Of a DNA stretch of 64,000 bases, positions 3,641 to 49,855 are shown in pieces; within the stretch, counting starts at the first letter, position 1; every line of letters starts with the position of its first letter. The DNA comes from a virus (Duplodnaviria; Caudoviricetes), in IMG/VR virus record IMGVR_UViG_3300025015_000022, positions 1 through 64,000 of that record; one strand, 5' to 3'. A program made the translations under genes and the position numbers. Below the pieces are notes generated by a model that made no database searches, was not told the origin of the DNA, and saw only the letters and a program-made list of their open reading frames with translations.

Positions 3641-5860
3641 GTGGCAGAGCGAATCGAAGCGACCATCACCGACGTGTTCCAGCCCACCAAGGGCGAGACC
3701 TGGGGCGTGGCCACCTGCACCGATGGACGCATGGTCGGCACGCGCCCGCTGACGATCTCGGTGGTTGGCGCGGTTGGCATGGCGAAGATCGGCGAGACGC
3801 TGGTGGCAGATGGCACGTGGGTCAACCACCCCACCTACGGCCGGCAGTTCAAAGCCGAGACGGTGGCGTTCAAAGCCCCCACCAAGCGCGAGCCCCTCAT
3901 CCGCTTCTTGGCGTCCACAGTGTCGGGCATCGGCGAGACGCGGGCTGCAATGATCGTCGACCACTTCGGAACCGACGCGATGCGCATCCTCGACGCACGC
4001 CCCGACCTGCTGCGAATGGTTCCCGGGCTGCCGCGCTCGCTGGTTCCCAAGATGGTCGAGGCGTACAAGGTCGCGCGCTGCACGAAGCACCGCGACATCC
4101 TGCTGTACCTGCAGACCGCTGGGGTGGGGCCCAAGCTGGCCGGGCGCATCGTCGAGAAGTACGGCACCCAGGCAGAAGCCAAGATCGCGGAGGATCCCTA
4201 CATCCTGATGACCGACTTCTCGGGGGTGGGCTTCTTGACCTGCGACAAGATCGCTGACCAGCTTGGGATACCAGCCAACGACCGGCGCCGCGTGCGAGCT
4301 GCGCTGGTGCACCACATCACCGAGGACTGCGAAGGCCAAGGGCACACCCACCTACCGACCGAGGGGCTGGTCGGCCGCCTGGGCGACAAGATGCGCAAGA
4401 CGCGCGACGTGGAGACGACCGCGATCCGCACGTACCTCAAGGAGCTGCTCGACGAGGGGACGATCGTTTTCGAGGACGGCCGGCTGTACCTGAGCAGGAC
4501 GCACCAGACGGAGGTCACGGTGGCCACGCGGCTGGTGGAGATCGCGCAGTCGCGACGGGCGGTGGTACCTGGTGTGGCTGACGAGGCGATCGCATGGGCA
4601 GAGGCCACCGATGGTGTGACGCTGACGGATGAGCAACGGGCGGCGGTGCTTGCAGCTACAGCGGGCGGGCTGCTGTGTTTGTCTGGAAATCCGGGCACGG
4701 GCAAATCGCTTTGTACCCGGGCCATCGTCCGCGCCCTCGACAACCTGCGGATCTCGTACGCGCTGTGCGCTCCCACGGGGAAGGCGGCGCAGCGGTCCAC
4801 CGAGGCCACGGGTCGCCACGCCACGACGATCCACCGGCTGCTGGGCTTCAAGGGCGACGGCTTCGAGATGAACGCGGGGAACCAGTTGTCGGCTGGCGTG
4901 GTGCTCATCGACGAGACGTCGATGGTGGACCTCACGCTGGCTCGCGCGCTCCTGGTGGCCATGAGGCCGGGGGCTGCGCTGGTGCTGGTTGGCGACGTCG
5001 ACCAGCTCCCAAGCGTGATGCCTGGCTCAGTCCTCGACGACGTGATCTCGAGCGGGCTCGCCACGGTGGTTCGGCTCACGACGATCCACCGGCAGGGCAA
5101 GGGCTCGGCGATCTCGCTGGCGGCTGCCACGGTGAACGCTGGCGGGCGTCCGGAGGGGCCCAGCCCCTACAGCGAGCCCACCGCGGAGTTCGGTGTGGTC
5201 GCGCTGAAAGAGAGCGAGCGGATCGCGGACGCCACGGTCGACCTGGTGCTGCGCGCTCGCGAGGTGTGGGGCTTCGACCCCGTGCGCGAGGTGCAGGTCA
5301 TCACGCCGATGAAGAAGTACGCGTCGGGGGTCCACGAACTGAACAAGCGGCTGCAGGAGGCGTTGAACCCCCTGCGGCTGGGGATGGGCGGCGAGGATGG
5401 TGGCGGCGAGGTGCGAGCGCACGGCGACGCGTTCCGGCCTGGTGACAAGGTGATGCAGACCAAGAACGACTACCAGCGCATGGTGTTCAACGGCATGGTG
5501 GGCTACGTGGCCTCGGTGGACCCGCAGAGCAACCGGCTCACGGTGGCGTTCGCGGACGGTGATGACGAGGTGGTGGCGTACGACCGGGAGGACCTGGCGC
5601 ACCTGGTGCTCGCGTACGCCAGCACGGTTCACAAGTTCCAGGGGGATCAGCAGGTGGCGATCGTCATGCCTCTTGATCCATCACACTGGTTCATGCAGTT
5701 CCGCGCGCTGGTTTATACCGGCATCACGCGGGCTCGCAAGCGCTGCGTGCTGGTGGGCGACGTGGCGAAGGCGCAGTCGAGGTACCGCGCCAAGAAGCGC
5801 GACGAGCGGATCACGTGGCTGGCGTCGAGGATGCGCGAGATCGCTGCGACGAGGGGGTGA
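3641..5860 (+). CDS. recD2: RecD2-like SF1B 5'-3' helicase
   Basis: N-terminal HPTYGRQF and HhH repeats (GIGETRA, GVGPKLA), GNPGTGKS, APTGKAA, LIDETSM, GDVDQLPSV, YASTVHKFQG, YTGITRAR. Confidence 0.92.
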   Translation: MAERIEATITDVFQPTKGETWGVATCTDGRMVGTRPLTISVVGAVGMAKIGETLVADGTWVNHPTYGRQFKAETVAFKAPTKREPLIRFLASTVSGIGETRAAMIVDHFGTDAMRILDARPDLLRMVPGLPRSLVPKMVEAYKVARCTKHRDILLYLQTAGVGPKLAGRIVEKYGTQAEAKIAEDPYILMTDFSGVGFLTCDKIADQLGIPANDRRRVRAALVHHITEDCEGQGHTHLPTEGLVGRLGDKMRKTRDVETTAIRTYLKELLDEGTIVFEDGRLYLSRTHQTEVTVATRLVEIAQSRRAVVPGVADEAIAWAEATDGVTLTDEQRAAVLAATAGGLLCLSGNPGTGKSLCTRAIVRALDNLRISYALCAPTGKAAQRSTEATGRHATTIHRLLGFKGDGFEMNAGNQLSAGVVLIDETSMVDLTLARALLVAMRPGAALVLVGDVDQLPSVMPGSVLDDVISSGLATVVRLTTIHRQGKGSAISLAAATVNAGGRPEGPSPYSEPTAEFGVVALKESERIADATVDLVLRAREVWGFDPVREVQVITPMKKYASGVHELNKRLQEALNPLRLGMGGEDGGGEVRAHGDAFRPGDKVMQTKNDYQRMVFNGMVGYVASVDPQSNRLTVAFADGDDEVVAYDREDLAHLVLAYASTVHKFQGDQQVAIVMPLDPSHWFMQFRALVYTGITRARKRCVLVGDVAKAQSRYRAKKRDERITWLASRMREIAATRG

Positions 5861-6189
5861 TCTTGGACGCCACCGACCGTCGCATCCTCGTGGCGCTGCT
5901 TCCGTTCGAAGCCACCGCCGCGACGATCGCGCGTGCTCTCGGCGTGGCCCGCTCGACACCAGGGCGCCACCTGCCTGCGCTCGAAGCTGCGGGGCTTGTG
6001 AGGTCGCGGTGGGACGAGGGCGCGTCGGCGATCGGCGCGCTGGTGTGGCGGTTGACGGGCAAGGGACGATCGCTCGCTGAGGGGATCGCGCGGGGCAACG
6101 AGGGGCTCGCGGCAGAGGCGATCGGGGCGGGTGACGACGTGGCCACTGAGGGCGCTGGTGACGTGGCTGGCGAGGGGTCGCGATCGTGA
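5857..6189 (+). CDS. winged-helix (ArsR/HTH-like) DNA-binding protein
   Basis: GTG overlaps the recD2 stop (GTGA). LDATDRRILVALL...ATIARALGVARSTPGRHLPALEAAGLV. Confidence 0.7.
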   Translation: MILDATDRRILVALLPFEATAATIARALGVARSTPGRHLPALEAAGLVRSRWDEGASAIGALVWRLTGKGRSLAEGIARGNEGLAAEAIGAGDDVATEGAGDVAGEGSRS

Positions 6190-6236
6190 CCGCGCAAGCC
6201 TCGCAGGCTGACACGACGGCGATCGCGAGATTGGCG

Positions 6237-6266
6237 TTGACGGGGATCGGCGGGGTGGCGTATGGT
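6237..6266 (+). promoter_or_regulatory. sigma70-type promoter of the replication operon
   Basis: TTGACG 6237-6242, 18-nt spacer ending GGCG, TATGGT 6261-6266. Confidence 0.65.
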
Positions 6267-6273
6267 CAGCACC

Positions 6274-6383
6274 GCTTGCCGTTCTGTGCCACAAAAAATG
6301 AACTCGCGCCTCCCGGTGGTGGGACGTCTACTCAGGACGGCAAGCACCCACCACCGGGAGATACGCGAGCGCTTGTGCGTCTG
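6274..6383 (+). ncRNA. structured leader RNA 1 (hairpin plus pseudoknot)
   Basis: Perfect 14-bp stem 6310-6323/6347-6360. 6274-6286 pairs with loop 6333-6345 (13 bp, one G-U). A second imperfect complement lies at 6371-6383. Confidence 0.6.
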
Positions 6384-6417
6384 GGGTGAGCGTCACGGAG
6401 GGGTCCAAGACGCGGGG

Positions 6418-6753
6418 ATGTGTGGGATGGGTGCCAAGAAGTGCGAAAGATCGAGCGGTCTGGATGCGAACACGGAAGCGATCTTGAACGAACTTGAACT
6501 GGCAATTCTTGACGACGACGATCCAGTTGATCGGGCTGTCGATGAGTACGTCGCCCGTGAGAAAGAAGCAGAGCAGATCCCGGTGGTTGTGTCGGTGCAT
6601 GGAAAGCTGACTTGCAGCCAGTGCCGTGACCATCGCGTGCGGGTGGCGGCGTTCTTCCGCACCGAAGACTGCCGACGCACGATCTGCGTGTGCGCGGCGT
6701 GCTTGAATGCCACGAGCGAAGCGGCAGACGTTGCAGGGGGCACGAATGGGTAA
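6418..6753 (+). CDS. small acidic protein with CxxC...CxxC zinc-finger; start uncertain (6262/6298/6418)
   Basis: CSQC and CAAC pairs. Stop overlaps the next gene start. Confidence 0.6.
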   Translation: MCGMGAKKCERSSGLDANTEAILNELELAILDDDDPVDRAVDEYVAREKEAEQIPVVVSVHGKLTCSQCRDHRVRVAAFFRTEDCRRTICVCAACLNATSEAADVAGGTNG

Positions 6754-7684
6754 TGTCCCCTGGGTACGCATGGACGCTGGCTTCGACTTCCACCCAGACG
6801 TGCGCCGAGCCGGTCACAACGGGTCGTCGGTGTTCCAAACGCTGGTGCGCTTGTCAAAGCTGTTGGGTCTCGACGGCCATCTGAAGGATAAGACACTCGA
6901 CCCCGATTACCTGTCGGACGTGATGCGCTGGGACACGGAGAGCGTCGAGAAAGGGATCGAAGCGTGCGTCCGAGTCGGGTTGCTGATCAGCGATGGGCAA
7001 GGCGGGGCCACAATTCCAGGCTGGGACAAGTACCAGAATCCGGACGCGCTACGCAAGCAGCTATCCAGATCGGAACGTCCGGACGAGGGCGGACAAGTCC
7101 GGACGCGGGCGGACTGTCCTGCTACGAGACGTGACGGGACGGGACAGGACGTGACGGGACGTGACGCAGATCAACCCCCCCTACCCCCCGCGAGCGGGGG
7201 GAGTCTCGCGCTTGCCGCTGACGCCACGGAATCACCTGCCGACGCACCGGCTGAACGTGGCGAGAGGAAGACACGCTGGACGGCTACTGCGTTCACAGAG
7301 AAGGACGCCACTGAGTTGTTCGATCGGTGGCGTGCGTACTTTGGCAAGGGCGAGCGGACGAAGTTCTCGTCAGACCGCATGCGCACCATCCATGCCAGGG
7401 CCAAGAAAGACACGACGCTGATGGAAGCGAAGATGGCTGTGATCGGGTGCTACGAAGAGAGCAAGAAAACCCTGTCGGACGGTCGCAAGCGCTCGGAAGA
7501 CGAAACGATGATCGCGTGGAACCTGATCTTCCGCAGCCGGTCCAACGTCGAGCGCTTCCGAGACATCGGCATGGCCAAGTTGAGGGCGGCGGGGTACCGG
7601 ATCAGCGACGATGGAACACAGGTGCTTCATGCAGACGGTACCGTGGCAACTGGAGCGGAGGTGGCCCGTGCACTTCGACGCTGA
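6746..7684 (+). CDS. replication initiator / replisome-organiser-like protein
   Basis: PWVRMDAGFDFHPDV N-terminus, repetitive central linker ending PPLPPASGG, helical C-terminal domain. Directly precedes primase-helicase. Confidence 0.7.
   Translation: MGNVPWVRMDAGFDFHPDVRRAGHNGSSVFQTLVRLSKLLGLDGHLKDKTLDPDYLSDVMRWDTESVEKGIEACVRVGLLISDGQGGATIPGWDKYQNPDALRKQLSRSERPDEGGQVRTRADCPATRRDGTGQDVTGRDADQPPLPPASGGSLALAADATESPADAPAERGERKTRWTATAFTEKDATELFDRWRAYFGKGERTKFSSDRMRTIHARAKKDTTLMEAKMAVIGCYEESKKTLSDGRKRSEDETMIAWNLIFRSRSNVERFRDIGMAKLRAAGYRISDDGTQVLHADGTVATGAEVARALRR
7039..7200 (+). repeat. iteron-like repeats inside the initiator gene (candidate origin)
   Basis: TCCGGA at 7039, 7078 and 7098 (palindrome CGTCCGGACG 7076-7085). 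GGCGGAC at 7088 and 7108. GACGTGACGGGAC at 7128 and 7148. Confidence 0.6.
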
Positions 7685-9677
7685 GCACGACGTCCGCGCG
7701 CTGGTCACCGAGAAGGGCTGGGAGGTGCTGTTCGAGGCCGCCCGTGAACTGTGGCTGAAGGTGTGCCCGCTCTGCGGTGGCGAGAGCCGTGACGTGAGCG
7801 ACAAGGCGTGCAGCTTCAACCTCGACAGCGGGGCGTTCCGCTGCTTCCGCGGTGGCTGTGCAGGTGGAGGTGGCAAGGGCCAGGGGCTCAACATCTGGAC
7901 GCTGCGCAAGGCCATCGGCGACGTGCTCGACATCGGCAGCTACACGCCGGGGAAGGTCGAGAAGGCGAAGGCCGCGGAGTACGTGCAGCGCTTGGCCACC
8001 GCCAAGGCGAAGCTCGCCAACGCCGATGGACCGGAGGCGTGGCACCGGCTGCTACTGGAGACGCCAGCCGCGCTGGAGTGGCTGGCGACGTGTGGCGGAC
8101 CGCTGAAGGGGCGAGGGCTCACACGGGAGACGGTCGAGCGCTTCCACCTCGGTCTGCACAAGGACGGACCGGAGCCGAAGGATCGGCGGTGGCTCACGAT
8201 CCCGTACTACCACGACGGCGAGCCCGCGCTCGTGAAGGAGCGCGCCATCGGGAACGTGGCGAAGGACGATTCGAGGTTCCGCCGCAGTCCTGCAGGTGCG
8301 CCATCGCTCATGTGGAATGCGGACGCGATCGCAGCGGGTGGCAGCCACGTGTACCTGTGCGAGGCCGAGATCGATGCGATCAGCCTGGAGCAGCTCGGGT
8401 TTTCGCCAGCGGTGGCAGCTAGCGCAGGCGCAGGTGCGTTTCCCGACGAGTGGCGCGAGCAGCTCGAGGCCGTCGAGAACATCGTGATCGTGTACGACAA
8501 CGACGCGATGGACGAGACGAGGACTGACGGGAAGAACCCCGGGGAGGATGGCGCCAGGAAGGTCGCGGAGGAGTTGGGCCCGTGGCGGTGCTACCGAGTG
8601 CAGCTCCCGCGAAAGGACGTCAACGACTGCCTGGTGCACTACGGGCCCACGGCGGCAGACGAGATCCGCAAGGCGATGGCGGCGGCGAAGCGCATGGGCG
8701 GGACGGGCATCGTGCACGTGAGCGAGGCCTTCGACGAGCTGCTGGCAGACCCGCTGGCGTCGGACTCGGGGTGGCAGACGGAATGGGATGGGTTGAACGC
8801 TGCGATCGGCGGCATCCGCAACGAGCTGATCGTGGTGACGGGCGACACCGAGGCGGGCAAGACGACGTTTTGCAACGCGCTGTTGCTGTGCCTGGCGAAG
8901 GCTGGGGCGCCTGGGTTGATGATCTCGCCGGAGATGACCCGCAAGCAGATCGCCCGCAAGCAGGGGTCCATGGTCGCGGGCAAGTCGTTTTTCCTGATGG
9001 ACGAGAGCGAGCGCCGGGCGGCCCGTGACGAGTTGGCGGAACTGCCGGTGCACGTCGGGCACTTCGAGGGCATGGTCGGTCTGAAGGTGGTCGAGAAGAC
9101 GATCGAGGCCTTCGTGCGTCGGCACCGCGGTCGCGTGGTGTTCGTCGACCATCTGGATTTCATCATGGACTGGCAGGCGCGGGACGAGCGGCACGAGATC
9201 AACCGCGTGGTGTTGGAAGTGCAGGGGTGGCCGGCGAAGTACGGGGTGGCGCTGGTGCTGGTGGCGCACCCGACGAAGAACCGGGTCAACCAGGTGACGG
9301 GGAAGAGCCGGCGCATCACCCGCGACGACATCCGTGGGTCGGCGGCGATCAAGCAGATGGCGATGACAATCCTGAGCCTCGACCGCGTTGGCGGCTCGCG
9401 GCTGAAGGTGTACGACGAGAAGGTCAGGTGGGACGGCATCCGGGTTCCTGGTGCGGTGCTGCTGGAGTACGACACGCGGACCATGCGCTACGTCGAGGTC
9501 GAGGAAGAGCAGGTCGTGAAGCGCCCACCGAAGGGCGCGAAGGCGAAGGGCAGCAACGGCCAGGCGGATCTCGAGGTCGGGACGACGAGTGGCCGGGATG
9601 GGGTCGACGGTGTGATCGATGCGCTGGAGGCGGCCGTGTTGGCCGACACCGGTGACGATGACGAAGCTGGGAGGTGA
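7668..9677 (+). CDS. primase-helicase (zinc finger + TOPRIM + T7 gp4/Twinkle-like helicase)
   Basis: GGAGGT RBS before GTG 7668. CPLC...CFRGGC, YLCEAEIDAIS, VYDND, GDTEAGKTT, FVDHLD, LVAHPTK, DIRGSAAIKQ. Confidence 0.9.
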   Translation: MHFDAEHDVRALVTEKGWEVLFEAARELWLKVCPLCGGESRDVSDKACSFNLDSGAFRCFRGGCAGGGGKGQGLNIWTLRKAIGDVLDIGSYTPGKVEKAKAAEYVQRLATAKAKLANADGPEAWHRLLLETPAALEWLATCGGPLKGRGLTRETVERFHLGLHKDGPEPKDRRWLTIPYYHDGEPALVKERAIGNVAKDDSRFRRSPAGAPSLMWNADAIAAGGSHVYLCEAEIDAISLEQLGFSPAVAASAGAGAFPDEWREQLEAVENIVIVYDNDAMDETRTDGKNPGEDGARKVAEELGPWRCYRVQLPRKDVNDCLVHYGPTAADEIRKAMAAAKRMGGTGIVHVSEAFDELLADPLASDSGWQTEWDGLNAAIGGIRNELIVVTGDTEAGKTTFCNALLLCLAKAGAPGLMISPEMTRKQIARKQGSMVAGKSFFLMDESERRAARDELAELPVHVGHFEGMVGLKVVEKTIEAFVRRHRGRVVFVDHLDFIMDWQARDERHEINRVVLEVQGWPAKYGVALVLVAHPTKNRVNQVTGKSRRITRDDIRGSAAIKQMAMTILSLDRVGGSRLKVYDEKVRWDGIRVPGAVLLEYDTRTMRYVEVEEEQVVKRPPKGAKAKGSNGQADLEVGTTSGRDGVDGVIDALEAAVLADTGDDDEAGR

Positions 9678-10888: not shown

Positions 10889-11605
10889 GTGATGATCCTG
10901 CTGAAACCTAGCGTGGTGCTGGAGTTCGGGCCGACCAATGAGGAAGCGGTGCGCATCTTGGAAGCGGCCGGGCGCGTGTGCTACAAGAGCGAGGCCAAGA
11001 GCGACGGGTCGCTGGCAGGTGCCGAGGCCTTCATCCGGAGGATCATCGAGCGCGGTCACGAGTCGGTGCTGGAGCACGTCGGCTGGACCCTGCGTTTCAT
11101 CACCGACCGAGGGGTCACGCACGAGTTGGTGCGTCACCGGATCGGGGTGGCGTTCTCGCAGGAGAGCACCCGGTACGTCGACCAGACGGCAGAGGGACAC
11201 GGCGGGCACTGCCAGTTCATCATTCCAAGCGGCATGTTCTACCGGTGTGCCATCACCCCAGGCCAGTACGAGAAGGGCCATCGTGCAGGTGTCGGGCTGA
11301 TCGGCGCTGACGACTTCGAGTTCGGGTGGGACTGGCTGGAGTGCCGGTGGTTCAACGTCATGCTGGAGGCAGAAGAGGCGTACAGCATCATGCGTCAGCA
11401 GGGGGTCTCACCGCAATGGGCTCGGGCGGTCCTGCCCAACTCGACCAAGACCGAGATCGTCATGACCTGCAACGCACGCGAGTGGCGGCACATCTTGAAG
11501 CTGCGTACCTCGTCGGCGGCGCACCCGCAGATGCGCGAGGTCATGGACGTAGCTCAGGCGCTGCTCGCCGAGCGGTGCCCGGTGCTGTTCGGTGTGACGC
11601 CATGA
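10889..11605 (+). CDS. thyX: FAD-dependent thymidylate synthase
   Basis: AGRVCYKS, GHESVLEH, ELVRHR-x5-SQESTRYV signature, ARAVLPNSTKTEIVMT.N.REWRH. Confidence 0.95.
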   Translation: MMILLKPSVVLEFGPTNEEAVRILEAAGRVCYKSEAKSDGSLAGAEAFIRRIIERGHESVLEHVGWTLRFITDRGVTHELVRHRIGVAFSQESTRYVDQTAEGHGGHCQFIIPSGMFYRCAITPGQYEKGHRAGVGLIGADDFEFGWDWLECRWFNVMLEAEEAYSIMRQQGVSPQWARAVLPNSTKTEIVMTCNAREWRHILKLRTSSAAHPQMREVMDVAQALLAERCPVLFGVTP

Positions 11606-15681: not shown

Positions 15682-15710
15682 TTGCCACGTCCACCGATCT
15701 GGGGTATCTT
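15682..15710 (+). promoter_or_regulatory. sigma70-type promoter with AT-rich upstream element
   Basis: TTGCCA 15682-15687, 17-nt spacer, TATCTT 15705-15710; upstream CAAAAGTT and ATTTTTT. Confidence 0.65.
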
Positions 15711-15716
15711 CAAGCC

Positions 15717-15995
15717 ATGGAAGAGACGAACACCAGCAAGGGGACGACGATGGCCACGATGACGCAGACTGAAGCCCGCCGCGTGTTCGACGAGGTGATC
15801 GCCAAGTCGACCGATGCAGACCAGGTGGCCAAGGTCGAGATGCTCCGCGAGTTCTTCTGCAACCCTGGCTTCCGCGCGGCGATGGCCGACGAGGTCGCCC
15901 GCATCAATGACGCACAGCCCGTGTGGGTGATTGCCTGCGGTAAGCCGGACGGTACGACGAGCGGCGGCTTCCGCATCCCCCGCCCCACGCTGTAG
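15717..15995 (+). CDS. small helical protein, paralog A (start 15717, 15750 or 15759)
   Basis: 54-aa block matches 16214-16378. Confidence 0.7.
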   Translation: MEETNTSKGTTMATMTQTEARRVFDEVIAKSTDADQVAKVEMLREFFCNPGFRAAMADEVARINDAQPVWVIACGKPDGTTSGGFRIPRPTL

Positions 15996-21403: not shown

Positions 21404-21431
21404 TTGACGCGGTGGGTGGGAGGCGTACAGT
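21404..21431 (+). promoter_or_regulatory. sigma70-type promoter upstream of the methylase
   Basis: TTGACG 21404-21409, 16-nt spacer ending GGCG, TACAGT 21426-21431. Confidence 0.65.
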
Positions 21432-21437
21432 GCAGGC

Positions 21438-21534
21438 GTTGGCCCGCTGTTTCACAAGCAATCGAGCATCCGTCCCCGGTGGAGGTGCCGTCTCACCGGC
21501 GGGCCAACCGCCGAAGCCGGGGGCGGGTGCTTTT
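21438..21534 (+). ncRNA. structured leader RNA 2 (hairpin plus pseudoknot, followed by UUUU)
   Basis: 16-bp stem 21465-21480/21516-21531 (three G-U). 21438-21449 pairs with 21497-21508 (12 bp, one G-U). Inner hairpin GAG-N7-CTC. Confidence 0.6.
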
Positions 21535-21548
21535 CCAGCAGGTGTGCG

Positions 21549-22373
21549 ATGAAGCCCTATCTGCGTTTGGTCGGAGGCAAGAGCAAGCTGGCAGACCGCA
21601 TCCTGTCCATGATGCCAGCGAGCTTCGAGACATACGTCGAACCGTGCGTGGGTGGTGGCGCGGTGGCCATGGCGCTGCTATCGGAACCGCCGCGGCGGTT
21701 CAAGCGCATGGTGCTCGCGGACGCCAACCCCGACTTGATCTCGGCGTGGTCGGCGGTGAAGTCCGAGGTCGAGGCCACGATCGCGCTGCTGCGGACGTGG
21801 GCGGACACGCCGGAGACGTTCGCGGCGGTGCGTGCACTGGAACCTTGCGACGACGTGACGAGGGGTGCGCGCTGGGTCTGGCTCAATCGGTGCAGCTTCA
21901 ACGGGCTCATGCGTCTCAACCGCGCCGGCAAGTTCAACGCTCCGTACGACGCCACCCGTCAGGGGAAGCGCGACGTGGTGCGGGCGGACCTGCTGCGTGA
22001 GGTGTCGCGGGGGCTGAAGGGCGTCGAGATCTGGCAGCTCGACGTGTTGGAGACGCTGTCGAGGGTTCGCGATGGTTGGTGCGCGTACGTCGATCCACCA
22101 TACCCGTCGCAGGGGTCGAGCACGGGGGACTTCACCGCGTACACCGCGGGCGGCTTCTCGCTGGTGCAGCACCGTGAGTTGCGGGATGCGTGCGAGGCGG
22201 CCACCGAGCGTGGAGCGCGGGTGGTCGTTAGCATGGGTGCCTGTTTCTACGCCGACAAGCTGTGGCGCCGGCCGCCGTGGACCGTGTACGACGTCACGAT
22301 GAGGCGCAACGTGTCGTGCAATGGCGACGGGCGCGGGGCTGTGGGCGAGATGCTCATCACGAGGGAGGTGTAG
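21549..22373 (+). CDS. dam: Dam-like (D12 class) N6-adenine DNA methyltransferase
   Basis: LVGGKSKL, YVEPCVGGGAV, ADANPDL, GKFNAPY, YVDPPY. GATC specificity is not proven. Confidence 0.88.
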   Translation: MKPYLRLVGGKSKLADRILSMMPASFETYVEPCVGGGAVAMALLSEPPRRFKRMVLADANPDLISAWSAVKSEVEATIALLRTWADTPETFAAVRALEPCDDVTRGARWVWLNRCSFNGLMRLNRAGKFNAPYDATRQGKRDVVRADLLREVSRGLKGVEIWQLDVLETLSRVRDGWCAYVDPPYPSQGSSTGDFTAYTAGGFSLVQHRELRDACEAATERGARVVVSMGACFYADKLWRRPPWTVYDVTMRRNVSCNGDGRGAVGEMLITREV

Positions 22374-47047: not shown

Positions 47048-49855
47048 ATGAGTACGTTCGTCTACGGACCCCAGGCTGGCGGCGCCGGTGTGCGCGTGTT
47101 CCGTCGTGACGCTTCCATCCCGTCGATGCCCGGCGCGTTCGGTTCGAGCGTGGCCATCGGGGCGTTCCGCAAGGGGCCCGTAGGGGTCGTTCTTCATCAG
47201 GGCGGCGCCGACGACGTGAATCGCGTGCGCAAGGATGACCTGATCGTCGAGGACCCGACGCCGCTGGCGGTGCGGCACTTCTTCGACGCGGGCAAGGGGT
47301 CGGGCGTGCTGGCGACGTTGCGGGTGACGGACGGCAACGAGCGTGCGGCGTCGCTGCGGCTGTTCGACAGGTACGTGGATACCACGGTGCGGGCACTGGC
47401 CCCCGACACGCGGACCAACGGCACGGTGGGGCAGTTGGACGCGGCGTCCCCTGGGACGTGGGCGGGCAAGGGGCTGGAGTACGGTGGTTCGGTGGCGGAC
47501 GGTGCGGCGGCCGAGACGGGCCCGACGTTCGCGACGGGCTCGATTGCCTTCGCCAAGGACGAGTTGAAGGGCGGCGTCTTCACGCTCACCGGGCACACGC
47601 GCGAGTGGGCGATCACGGGCAACACCGCGGTGGGCGTCGTGACGGTCCAGGGCGACTTCGTGGCCGAGGCGCTGGCTGCAGTGCCGATCCGCTGGCACGT
47701 CTCGGTGCCCAGCGTGCGCTACGACGGCACCAAGAGCGACCTCACTGTCAGGCTGCGCGACGGCTCGCAGAACCCCGACCTGTCGTTCGGCGTGGTGCTC
47801 TCCGAGGACGGCGGCGAGTACAGCCTGCCGAAGCTCCTGGAACTGAGCCTCGACAGCGACGACACGCGGCACTGGCAGAAGACGATCGACGAGCTGCTGA
47901 GGCAACACGAGCAGTGGGAAGTGGACGCGGCCGACGTGTTCGCCGGAGACCCCGTGTTGGCGCACCTGAAGCCTGCGAACTTCGCCGAGATCCCGTTCCC
48001 GGGCGGCGTGTCCGGCAACACGGTCAAGCTCGAGACCTTCCGCTACAAGCGCACGGGCACGGGCGAGGGCTACATCGCGCGCACCGCGTTCACGGTGGGC
48101 TCGGCGGTGAAGCCGCACTACCTGGTGCTGACCTTCACCGACGCCACCCACTACACGGTGGAGGCGTACGACTTCAACGACATGGCGATCGCTGAAGACC
48201 TGCCGGCCGGCGAGGTGGCGGTGGCCTACGGCCCGCCCGAGCCGCACCTGTCCGGGCACACGGTCACAGCGGCCGGCGCGGCTCACGTCGAAGGCGACAC
48301 CATCACGATCTTCTGCCGCGTGCTGCCGACCGACCTGAAGGCGCGCAAGGCGTGGCTGTACCCGAACGCGTTCGCCTCGACGCACACGGGCTCGAAGGAC
48401 GTGACGCAGCGCTTCCGCGTGACGAAGGTGACGCAGAACGCCGACGGCTCGCAGACGCTGACCCTCGGCTTGAACGACGACCTGGCCGGCATCGCGGTTC
48501 CCCCGGGTCTGCCGCAGGCAGTGGGTACGACCTCCGGGACGTACGCGAACAACGCAATCAAGACGGTCATGTGCTCGCTGGAAGTCGACGGGGTGATCTC
48601 CGGTGTGGCGATCAACGTCTCGACCGCGGGCACGGGTGGCGCCACGGACACCGCTACCCAGGAGGCGGCGGCCATCAACGCGGCGCTGGCAGCCGAGCCC
48701 CGCGTCGAGGCCTTCGTGCACACCGACGACGCCGGGCTGGAGTACGTGGGGCTCCGTGCCACCGCGGCCTGGGGGAACTACGGGCCGAACGCCTCCATCG
48801 TCGTCGACAAGGACGGCACGATCAATACCATCATCGGCTTCTCCGCGGCGGCCGACACCGAGGAAGAGGGCGAGAACCCGACCACCTGCCGGGTGGAGTA
48901 CGAGCAGCCGCTGACGGGTGGCATCGACGGGCACCACGACTTGGCGGACGAAGACTACACCAGCTCGGCCTTCGACCTGGAGGACTCGCCGCTCTTGGAC
49001 CTGCCGCAGTACAACCTGGGGCTGATCACGCTGTTCGCCCCCGGGCAGTACGGCGGCGACATCCAGGACGCTGCCCAGGCCTTCTGCGAGCGGCACGGCT
49101 TCTGGTGGAACGGCACCGTGCAGTCGACGATCACGACGGAGCAGTCCGCGGGCAAGTGGCAGCGGGACAACCTCTCGTCGTTCCTGGAGCACGGCTGGCT
49201 CACCTTCCCGAGCTACTGCGACCTGGCCGACAACCCCTTCGGTGGGTCGACGGCGTATCAGGCCGACATGATGGGGCTGATCACGGGGCTCGAGGCGAAC
49301 CTGTCCGTGCGGCGCAAGGGCTACCAGAAGGCCCCCGCGGGTGCGGACCTGCGGCTCGATGGCTGGGTGCGCCGGCTGACGACCGACGCGACCGACGACC
49401 CGAACCCGATGAACGACGCGATCCTGAACGGGTACGGGATTCGCACGATCATGCACCAGGGGTCGAGCATCTACCTGTTCGGCGACGAGGCCCCTGGGTT
49501 GAACGGCAAGGGGACGATCTGGGTGCACAAGGCGAAGAGCATCCTGCACCTGGTGGCCGAGATCCGGGCGAACATGTACCAGTACGTCTACGAGGTGGTG
49601 GACGACGACCTGCGCAAGAAGGTGGTCTCGGCGTTGCGGAGCATCTTCCGCCCGCACCACAAGGACGGCTGGTTCAAGGGTACGGGGGAGTTCGACAGCG
49701 ACGTGCAGATCGTCGCGAACGACACGAACAACCCTCCCGAGGTGCAGGCGCTGGGCAAGGTGGTTGCCACCTGCACGTTCGAGATCGTAGAGACGGCGAA
49801 GGTCGTCGAGGTGGTGCTTGGGACGAAGGGCATGGCGGTTCGCGCGGCGGCGTAA
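47048..49855 (+). CDS. contractile tail sheath protein (enlarged)
   Basis: N-terminal AIGAFRKGPV; C-terminal LNGYGIRTI...IWVHK...VYE...GWFKG...VATC.FEIVETAKVV. Confidence 0.85.
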   Translation: MSTFVYGPQAGGAGVRVFRRDASIPSMPGAFGSSVAIGAFRKGPVGVVLHQGGADDVNRVRKDDLIVEDPTPLAVRHFFDAGKGSGVLATLRVTDGNERAASLRLFDRYVDTTVRALAPDTRTNGTVGQLDAASPGTWAGKGLEYGGSVADGAAAETGPTFATGSIAFAKDELKGGVFTLTGHTREWAITGNTAVGVVTVQGDFVAEALAAVPIRWHVSVPSVRYDGTKSDLTVRLRDGSQNPDLSFGVVLSEDGGEYSLPKLLELSLDSDDTRHWQKTIDELLRQHEQWEVDAADVFAGDPVLAHLKPANFAEIPFPGGVSGNTVKLETFRYKRTGTGEGYIARTAFTVGSAVKPHYLVLTFTDATHYTVEAYDFNDMAIAEDLPAGEVAVAYGPPEPHLSGHTVTAAGAAHVEGDTITIFCRVLPTDLKARKAWLYPNAFASTHTGSKDVTQRFRVTKVTQNADGSQTLTLGLNDDLAGIAVPPGLPQAVGTTSGTYANNAIKTVMCSLEVDGVISGVAINVSTAGTGGATDTATQEAAAINAALAAEPRVEAFVHTDDAGLEYVGLRATAAWGNYGPNASIVVDKDGTINTIIGFSAAADTEEEGENPTTCRVEYEQPLTGGIDGHHDLADEDYTSSAFDLEDSPLLDLPQYNLGLITLFAPGQYGGDIQDAAQAFCERHGFWWNGTVQSTITTEQSAGKWQRDNLSSFLEHGWLTFPSYCDLADNPFGGSTAYQADMMGLITGLEANLSVRRKGYQKAPAGADLRLDGWVRRLTTDATDDPNPMNDAILNGYGIRTIMHQGSSIYLFGDEAPGLNGKGTIWVHKAKSILHLVAEIRANMYQYVYEVVDDDLRKKVVSALRSIFRPHHKDGWFKGTGEFDSDVQIVANDTNNPPEVQALGKVVATCTFEIVETAKVVEVVLGTKGMAVRAAA

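Follow-up and report, generated by a model that had tools for sequence, protein, structure and literature searches.

Which function is carried by the 237-nt gap that follows the gene of a winged-helix regulator in a phage genome and precedes its replication operon, and at what level, that of RNA, protein or DNA, is this gap selected? The initial annotation had described here a target-antisense-target layout, that is, an antisense loop flanked by two targets as in the seqA-seqB-seqC logic of P4, and had suggested an RNA switch for replication or immunity. The window considered below is the whole stretch analysed, the initial 64 kb (G+C 67%) of an 84,464-bp IMG/VR virus record with CheckV completeness of 100%. 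Nearly all genes of the phage are on the + strand, and there is no close relative among cultured phages, GenBank phages showing at most ~25-28% protein identity. No tyrosine or large serine recombinase (PF00589, PF07508) was detected in this complete genome, so the phage is probably not temperate. The genes surrounding the gap and those located further downstream are as follows.

3641-5860: RecD2-like helicase
5863-6189, + strand: winged-helix (ArsR/MarR-like) regulator (Pfam HTH_20/HTH_5; PHROG transcriptional regulator)
6427-6753, + strand: small Cys-rich protein, the first gene of the operon
6707-7684: O-like replication initiator
7611-9677: primase-helicase
10889-11605: ThyX

The gap itself holds a promoter and, downstream of it, a structured region, Leader 1, in which two long helices (P1 and P2) and a short one (P0) were recognized:

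6190-6236, no strand assigned: invariant block upstream of the -35 box, with the palindrome AGCCTcgcAGGCT at 6197-6209
6237-6266, + strand: sigma-70-like promoter TTGACG-18-TATGGT, found by consensus scan
6274-6286, + strand: P1a, the predicted 5'-terminal 13 nt, pairing with P1b
6287-6302, + strand: A-rich linker CACAAAAAAUGAA, by direct reading
6303-6308, + strand: 5' strand of P0 (CUCGCG), from the MFE fold, extending the hairpin beneath a small internal loop
6310-6323, + strand: 5' arm of P2, the 14-bp hairpin
6333-6345, + strand: P1b, the loop segment complementary to P1a, 9 nt past the 5' arm of P2 and 1 nt before its 3' arm
6347-6360, + strand: 3' arm of P2
6364-6369, + strand: 3' strand of P0 (CGCGAG), from the MFE fold
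6376-6426, + strand: nearly invariant 3' leader block, with 3 substitutions in 51 nt between lineages

Direct reading of the sequence confirmed the perfect 14-bp hairpin of the initial annotation, in which CTCCCGGTGGTGGG (6310-6323) pairs with CCCACCACCGGGAG (6347-6360) around a loop of 23 nt. It likewise bore out the complementarity of the loop segment CAGGACGGCAAGC (6333-6345) to GCTTGCCGTTCTG (6274-6286), which amounts to 12 Watson-Crick pairs and one G-U pair. In the 64-kb window the 13-mer has two zero-mismatch matches, one per strand, and no others. The energies of the isolated helices are -22.7 kcal/mol for P1 and -31.2 kcal/mol for P2. As P1 and P2 do not overlap, they can coexist, but only as a pseudoknot. 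In nested folds of both lineages compared below, the partner of P1a is instead 6394-6409, with a gain of only 2.7-5.5 kcal/mol. The linker at 6287-6302 is the sole AT-rich stretch of the leader, and its A-rich character is kept in the related lineage and in a second leader of the same phage (Leader 2, see below). Two further candidate elements were discarded: a small hairpin inside the loop, whose register is not kept in the relative, and an intrinsic terminator or attenuator, since a U-tract after P2 is absent in either lineage.

The placement of the transcript start at 6274-6286 in the initial annotation is reasonable, as 6274 lies 7 nt past the -10 box of the 6237-6266 promoter; with this spacing, transcription is expected to start at ~6273-6274, the first base of P1a, although the start is only predicted. 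The -35 box is preserved in the relative, whose -10 box reads TATCTT. Sites of the form TTGACN-16/18-TAnnnT occur only twice on the + strand of the 84-kb genome, ahead of Leaders 1 and 2. Immediately upstream, the 61 nt at 6190-6250, from the 3' flank of the regulator gene through the -35 box, are 100% identical between the two lineages, whereas the flanking coding DNA is ~82% identical. Judging from this conservation, the block at 6190-6236 is a candidate operator for the winged-helix regulator. The arms of P1 and P2 were also considered as the operator and were rejected: the two lineages share one and the same recognition helix of the regulator but show 13 differences in the arms, which makes 6190-6236 the better candidate. 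Another promoter-like sequence, TTGCCA-17-TATCTT, was noticed at 15682-15719 of the window with an ATG just 6 nt past its -10 box; a message starting there would be leaderless or nearly so. Similar sequences are present twice in the relative (G001, ~51640 and 54328).

Two IMG/VR contigs, mutually identical in this region, share the module: 5864-6434 aligns at 82% identity, and the similarity is lost on either side. The comparison therefore involves two distinct lineages, the window phage and one related lineage. The regulator gene adjoins the leader upstream and both are inherited as one module; the homologues of the regulator begin at a TTG or ATG equivalent to 5863. Two more distant regulator homologues, P0003 and P0004, which come from Logan assemblies, have 65-69% identity. 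The regulator protein retrieved the same two records again from viral contigs, no matches from metagenome contigs, and solely matches of 37-43%, in Planctomycetota MAGs, from genome contigs. No relatives of the initiator protein were found in viral contigs; a search with the exact hairpin pattern gave no matches, one with a conserved 21-mer gave the known relative only, and a 19-mer had 17 matches in metagenome contigs, all by chance. The relative has an extra DNA-methylase-like gene between helicase and regulator (L005, 7100-8302) that is absent from the window phage and contains four tandem 14-residue repeats (QLPHVGDPGMGINR).

Homologue covariation, which the initial annotation had named as a way to check the structure, was found in both long helices, P1 and P2 together showing five compensatory double changes, three single wobble-compatible changes and no broken pair. 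The 13 pairs of P1 account for two of the double changes and for all three single, G-U-compatible ones in comparison with the one relative, with three substitutions in the 5' segment and four in the loop partner. In P2 there are three changes per arm, all of them compensatory (U-A to C-G, C-G to U-A and U-A to C-G), and its pairs are all Watson-Crick in both lineages. P0 is invariant in both lineages and is thus uninformative for covariation. Taken over P1, P0 and P2, 33 of 33 pairs are intact in both lineages, while sliding the 3' partner by 1-3 columns left just 41-49% of cells paired. When the same number of substitutions was placed independently on each arm in simulations, the chance of all pairs being kept was 0.006-0.07 for P1 and 0.005-0.05 for P2, or jointly 3e-5 to 3e-3. 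The non-Watson-Crick pairs are all three G-U on the + strand and would be A-C on the opposite strand, which favours an RNA of the + strand over a protein-binding inverted repeat. By the evidence of these alignments, Leader 1 is a selected RNA fold, with both helices under RNA-level selection in two lineages.

How often such an arrangement arises by chance was assessed in several ways. Stems of at least 12 bp are not enriched in the genome, with six observed on the + strand against 8.0 +/- 2.7 in 25 dinucleotide shuffles. Interleaved pairs of stems of at least 12 bp never occurred in the 25 shuffles, and at a cut-off of 10 bp a few arose by chance. As controls, other viral contigs supplied 115 sites with the shared promoter pattern, and 575 positions were taken at random. 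None of the 115 and none of the 575 had a comparable interleaved pair (13+14 or 12+17 bp); weak interleaved helices (9+11 bp) followed three of the 115 promoter-pattern matches and six of the 575 random positions. Several unrelated windows of the genome match the real P1 in duplex energy, which means that energy alone identifies no target. The case for the structure is carried by contiguity and covariation, not by duplex energy.

Where translation of the first gene begins was also reconsidered. The nucleotide similarity to the relative ends exactly after the ATG at 6427, the ATG at 6418 is AGG in the relative and the ATG at 6262 is absent there, all of which indicates that the gene starts at 6427. 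The GGAGGGG at 6397-6403, taken for the ribosome-binding site in the initial annotation, sits 23 nt before this conserved ATG and probably does not serve as such; GGGGAUG at 6414-6420, which reads GGAGG in the relative with 6 nt left to the ATG, is the likelier Shine-Dalgarno sequence. The start codon is at the same time a mosaic boundary (window, 6427 on; L005, 8884 on). Past this boundary, the Cys-rich gene and most of the initiator gene are unrelated between the lineages at the nucleotide level; the module of regulator plus leader and the primase-helicase are conserved between them. A frame of 67 codons at 6186-6389 overlaps the regulator stop (GTGA) and has the same start and stop in both lineages; it is shifted mid-way and thus is probably not a gene.

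The architecture of Leader 1 recurs elsewhere in the window with an unrelated sequence:

21404-21532, + strand: Leader 2, ahead of a DNA methylase gene

Its promoter, TTGACG-16-TACAGT, occupies 21404-21431, and its P1a (21438-21449), beginning 6 nt past the promoter, forms 12 bp with 21497-21508, a segment located inside the loop of a 16-17-bp stem (21464-21479/21517-21532). The stem is followed by TTTT and then by the ATG of the methylase gene at 21549, leaving a gap of 16 nt between stem and ATG. The sequence likeness of Leaders 1 and 2 is limited to the promoter and the A-rich linker. A search with the methylase found no relatives of Leader 2, and the two related contigs lack that region. 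In the window phage, in the relative and in Leader 2 alike, P1a begins 6-7 nt past the -10 box, the start site being predicted. A third leader, outside the window at genome positions 71691-71840, has the promoter TTGAAA-17-TACTAT followed by a multi-hairpin fold, the closing stem of which (13-15 bp) starts 2-3 nt past the -10 box and covaries in the relative, where the counterpart is at ~48910-49075 of G001 (~8910-9075 of L032). In this third leader, a UUUCCU...GGGAGG hairpin sequesters the Shine-Dalgarno sequence just upstream of the ATG. Taken together, the three leaders suggest that base-pairing of the nucleotides transcribed first recurs among the leaders of this phage and is under selection.

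As the best explanation, which we hold tentatively and with slightly less than even confidence, we propose that Leader 1, as the 5' leader of the early mRNA of the replication operon, folds in cis into a pseudoknot and shields the 5' end of this message. We infer the transcription start, the simultaneous presence of P1 and P2 and the stabilising function. Host RNA polymerase would start at ~6273-6274, and the first 13 nt, P1a, would pair with P1b, made 47 nt later, after which the 14-bp hairpin P2 would close around P1b. P1b is transcribed before the 3' arm of P2, so P1 can form first, and the single nucleotide between P1b and the 3' arm of P2 means that P1 can stack on P2 with a continuous strand. 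By geometric reasoning, the 9-nt stretch of the loop would lie across the deep groove of P1 and the 23-nt linker would span the length of the stack, placing the 5' terminus at the helix junction; with P0 formed, a linker of 16 nt would be barely long enough. Most probably, the 5' end would have no unpaired nucleotides and would be shielded from 5'-end-dependent decay, be it by RppH with RNase E or by RNase J. How long the message for the small Cys-rich protein, the O-like initiator and the primase-helicase lasts, and how much is made from it, would then depend on this shielding. RppH requires a 5' end with two or more unpaired nucleotides, and a base-paired 5' terminus is protected from RNase E (PMC3997798). 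On account of these enzymatic requirements, we give first place to protection of the 5' end, or to control over how long the message lasts, followed by a toggle in cis, by a put-like element and, in fourth place, by a P4-like antisense RNA acting in trans. At the same time, a plain 5' hairpin would suffice for protection, and thus the pseudoknot and the near-invariant 51-nt block suggest an additional or a different function.

One alternative is a switch in cis, with P1a alternating between P1b as a decoy and the Shine-Dalgarno-like block at 6394-6409 or the translation-initiation region. Translation of the replication operon would then be set by a trigger, be it a protein, a ligand or the sequence of folding events during transcription. 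We regard this as unlikely, though several observations agree with it: the nested MFE folds described above give P1a this partner in both lineages, all three substitutions in P1a stay compatible with this pairing, A6408G, one of just three substitutions in the 3' block, would agree with a shift of the register by one base, P1b resembles the Shine-Dalgarno-like block, and the 3' block is nearly invariant. However, the energy gained by the alternative helix is small, a single fitting substitution is no test, the GGAGGGG, 23 nt from the start codon, is probably no working Shine-Dalgarno sequence, and Leader 2, with 16 nt from stem to ATG, has no equivalent block. Processive antitermination as by put RNAs, in which the nascent leader would bind RNA polymerase and cause read-through of long one-directional operons, is improbable in our judgement. 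It would agree with the location of the two leaders, each of which immediately follows one of the only two strong sigma-70-type promoters in the genome, and with the almost complete co-directionality of the genes in these 84 kb. HK022 putL is ~70 nt long and lies just downstream of PL, and put RNAs consist of two tandem stem-loops (PMC9378689), whereas a 5'-end pseudoknot is proposed here; moreover, Leaders 1 and 2 have no sequence similarity that could provide a common polymerase-binding surface, and terminator-like sites in the operon do not exceed the shuffled expectation.

The reading closest to the initial annotation is that ~6303-6369 is excised as a small RNA, like P4 CI or P1 c4, and that its loop, acting in trans, base-pairs to the 5' segment of transcripts newly made, shutting off the replication operon. 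The loop is indeed complementary to an upstream site, this complementarity is kept by covariation, and the element lies upstream of replication genes, as in P4. P4 CI RNA pairs with both seqA and seqC (PMC4825925); here a bulged duplex of the loop with 6370-6394 is formed in the window sequence alone (-25.6 kcal/mol, ~-3.5 sd relative to genome windows), the equivalent duplex of the relative being at background level (-21.9 kcal/mol, ~-1 sd). The second target at 6371-6383 has four ungapped mismatches to the motif and, in the relative, has not changed in step with the four substitutions of the loop, so that this part of the initial annotation is not upheld. No Rfam family was found in the whole window at gathering score, and at E<=10 the region 6150-6480 gave a single chance match, to a plant miRNA on the minus strand, and none on the + strand. 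No terminator-like sites were found in 5500-7500 and thus after the leader, the complete genome has no integrase, and no further target to which the loop would be near-perfectly complementary was found in it. With the downstream target unconserved and with neither an Rfam match nor a terminator-like site, the seqA-seqB-seqC logic is not supported, and we consider an antisense RNA of the P4 type very improbable, the more so as folding in cis is the simpler reading of complementary segments 47 nt apart in one transcript. What stands of the proposed switch for replication or immunity is a selected, structured leader of the replication operon, in which the helix of loop and 5' segment is the feature with the strongest backing; a role in lysogenic immunity has no context in a complete genome without recombinases. 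Finally, the stretch might be translated, as an extension from the ATG at 6298 or as the 6186-6389 frame, or might act at the level of DNA, for instance as an operator or an origin hairpin, which seems to us hardly probable at all. Both frames are open in the relative, that of ATG 6298 with equal length, among the three substitutions falling within 6376-6426, two are silent in the latter frame, and inverted repeats bound by one protein can mimic covariation. Yet two compensating 1-nt indels flank the hairpin and shift the frame of ATG 6298 across it, so that ~24 residues are unrelated and every base pair is kept, which argues for selection on the RNA fold and not on the peptide; open frames are common at 67% GC, and neither ATG 6262 nor ATG 6418 is conserved. 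A DNA-level site is at odds with the 13 arm differences facing an identical recognition helix, with mismatches that are G-U on one strand only and with the beginning of the element at the predicted +1 in three independent cases. The outcome that the initial annotation had set against itself, translation from 6262/6298 with the structure unconserved, is thus the reverse of what we observed, since the pairing is conserved and the peptide is not.

The element fits no described leader family and belongs to the broad kind of structured phage leader RNAs. It shares with P4 CI and P1/P7 c4 a leader hairpin whose loop is complementary to an upstream site of the same transcript, ahead of replication genes; it differs from them in having no conserved downstream target, Rfam match, following terminator or lysogeny genes, and in a pairing that is most simply read as intramolecular and in which the extreme 5' end takes part. 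In pairing at or next to the predicted first nucleotide, it would resemble the 5'-terminal stabilisers of the ompA type, which counteract RNase E, RppH or RNase J. The known stabilisers of this kind are simple hairpins, whereas here the partner of the 5' end is within the loop of a second long hairpin, which makes a pseudoknot. With HK022 putL and putR it has in common a structured RNA of ~70-100 nt immediately downstream of an early phage promoter. The put RNA acts on its own transcript, and its tandem stem-loops share sequence; it has neither 5'-end pairing nor a pseudoknot, unlike the long hairpin combined with a helix between 5' end and loop described here. A leader that carries a pseudoknot at its 5' end, in a phage message related to replication, is also known from T4 gene 32, the translational operator of which consists of a small H-type knot and an unstructured A/U-rich tract and is bound by the gene's own protein. 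In contrast, the helices of Leader 1 have 13 and 14 bp, the downstream part of the leader is GC-rich, structured and nearly invariant, and the relative has retained the leader but has another first gene in its place downstream. The order of strands, P1-P2-small hairpin-P1-P2, resembles that of HDV-like ribozymes, which have a nested double pseudoknot with a P1 of ~6-7 bp and a conserved catalytic C in the joining segment before the 3' strand of P2. An HDV-like ribozyme was nevertheless rejected, given the lack of an Rfam hit, the 13 bp of P1, the small loop hairpin that is out of register and the single joining nucleotide, an A in the window sequence but a C in that of the relative.

Structured leaders are a main means by which phages time their early genes, and to our knowledge few types of phage leader have been characterised, namely put, the gene 32 operator and P4 CI / P1 c4. 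It is possible, though we consider it doubtful, that Leaders 1 and 2 represent an uncatalogued class of promoter-proximal 'self-capping' pseudoknots, which is defined by architecture, not by sequence, and in which the initial 12-13 nucleotides of the transcript would pair into a long hairpin's loop and the 5' terminus would be buried where the helices join. If such a class exists, the fold could be a bacterial counterpart of exonuclease-resistant RNAs or a polymerase-modifying element. Should the buried 5' end protect the message or alter its handling by the polymerase or the ribosome, the leader would constitute a compact, portable module determining mRNA fate, and its architecture would also provide a sequence-independent pattern with which such leaders may be searched for in uncultured phages.
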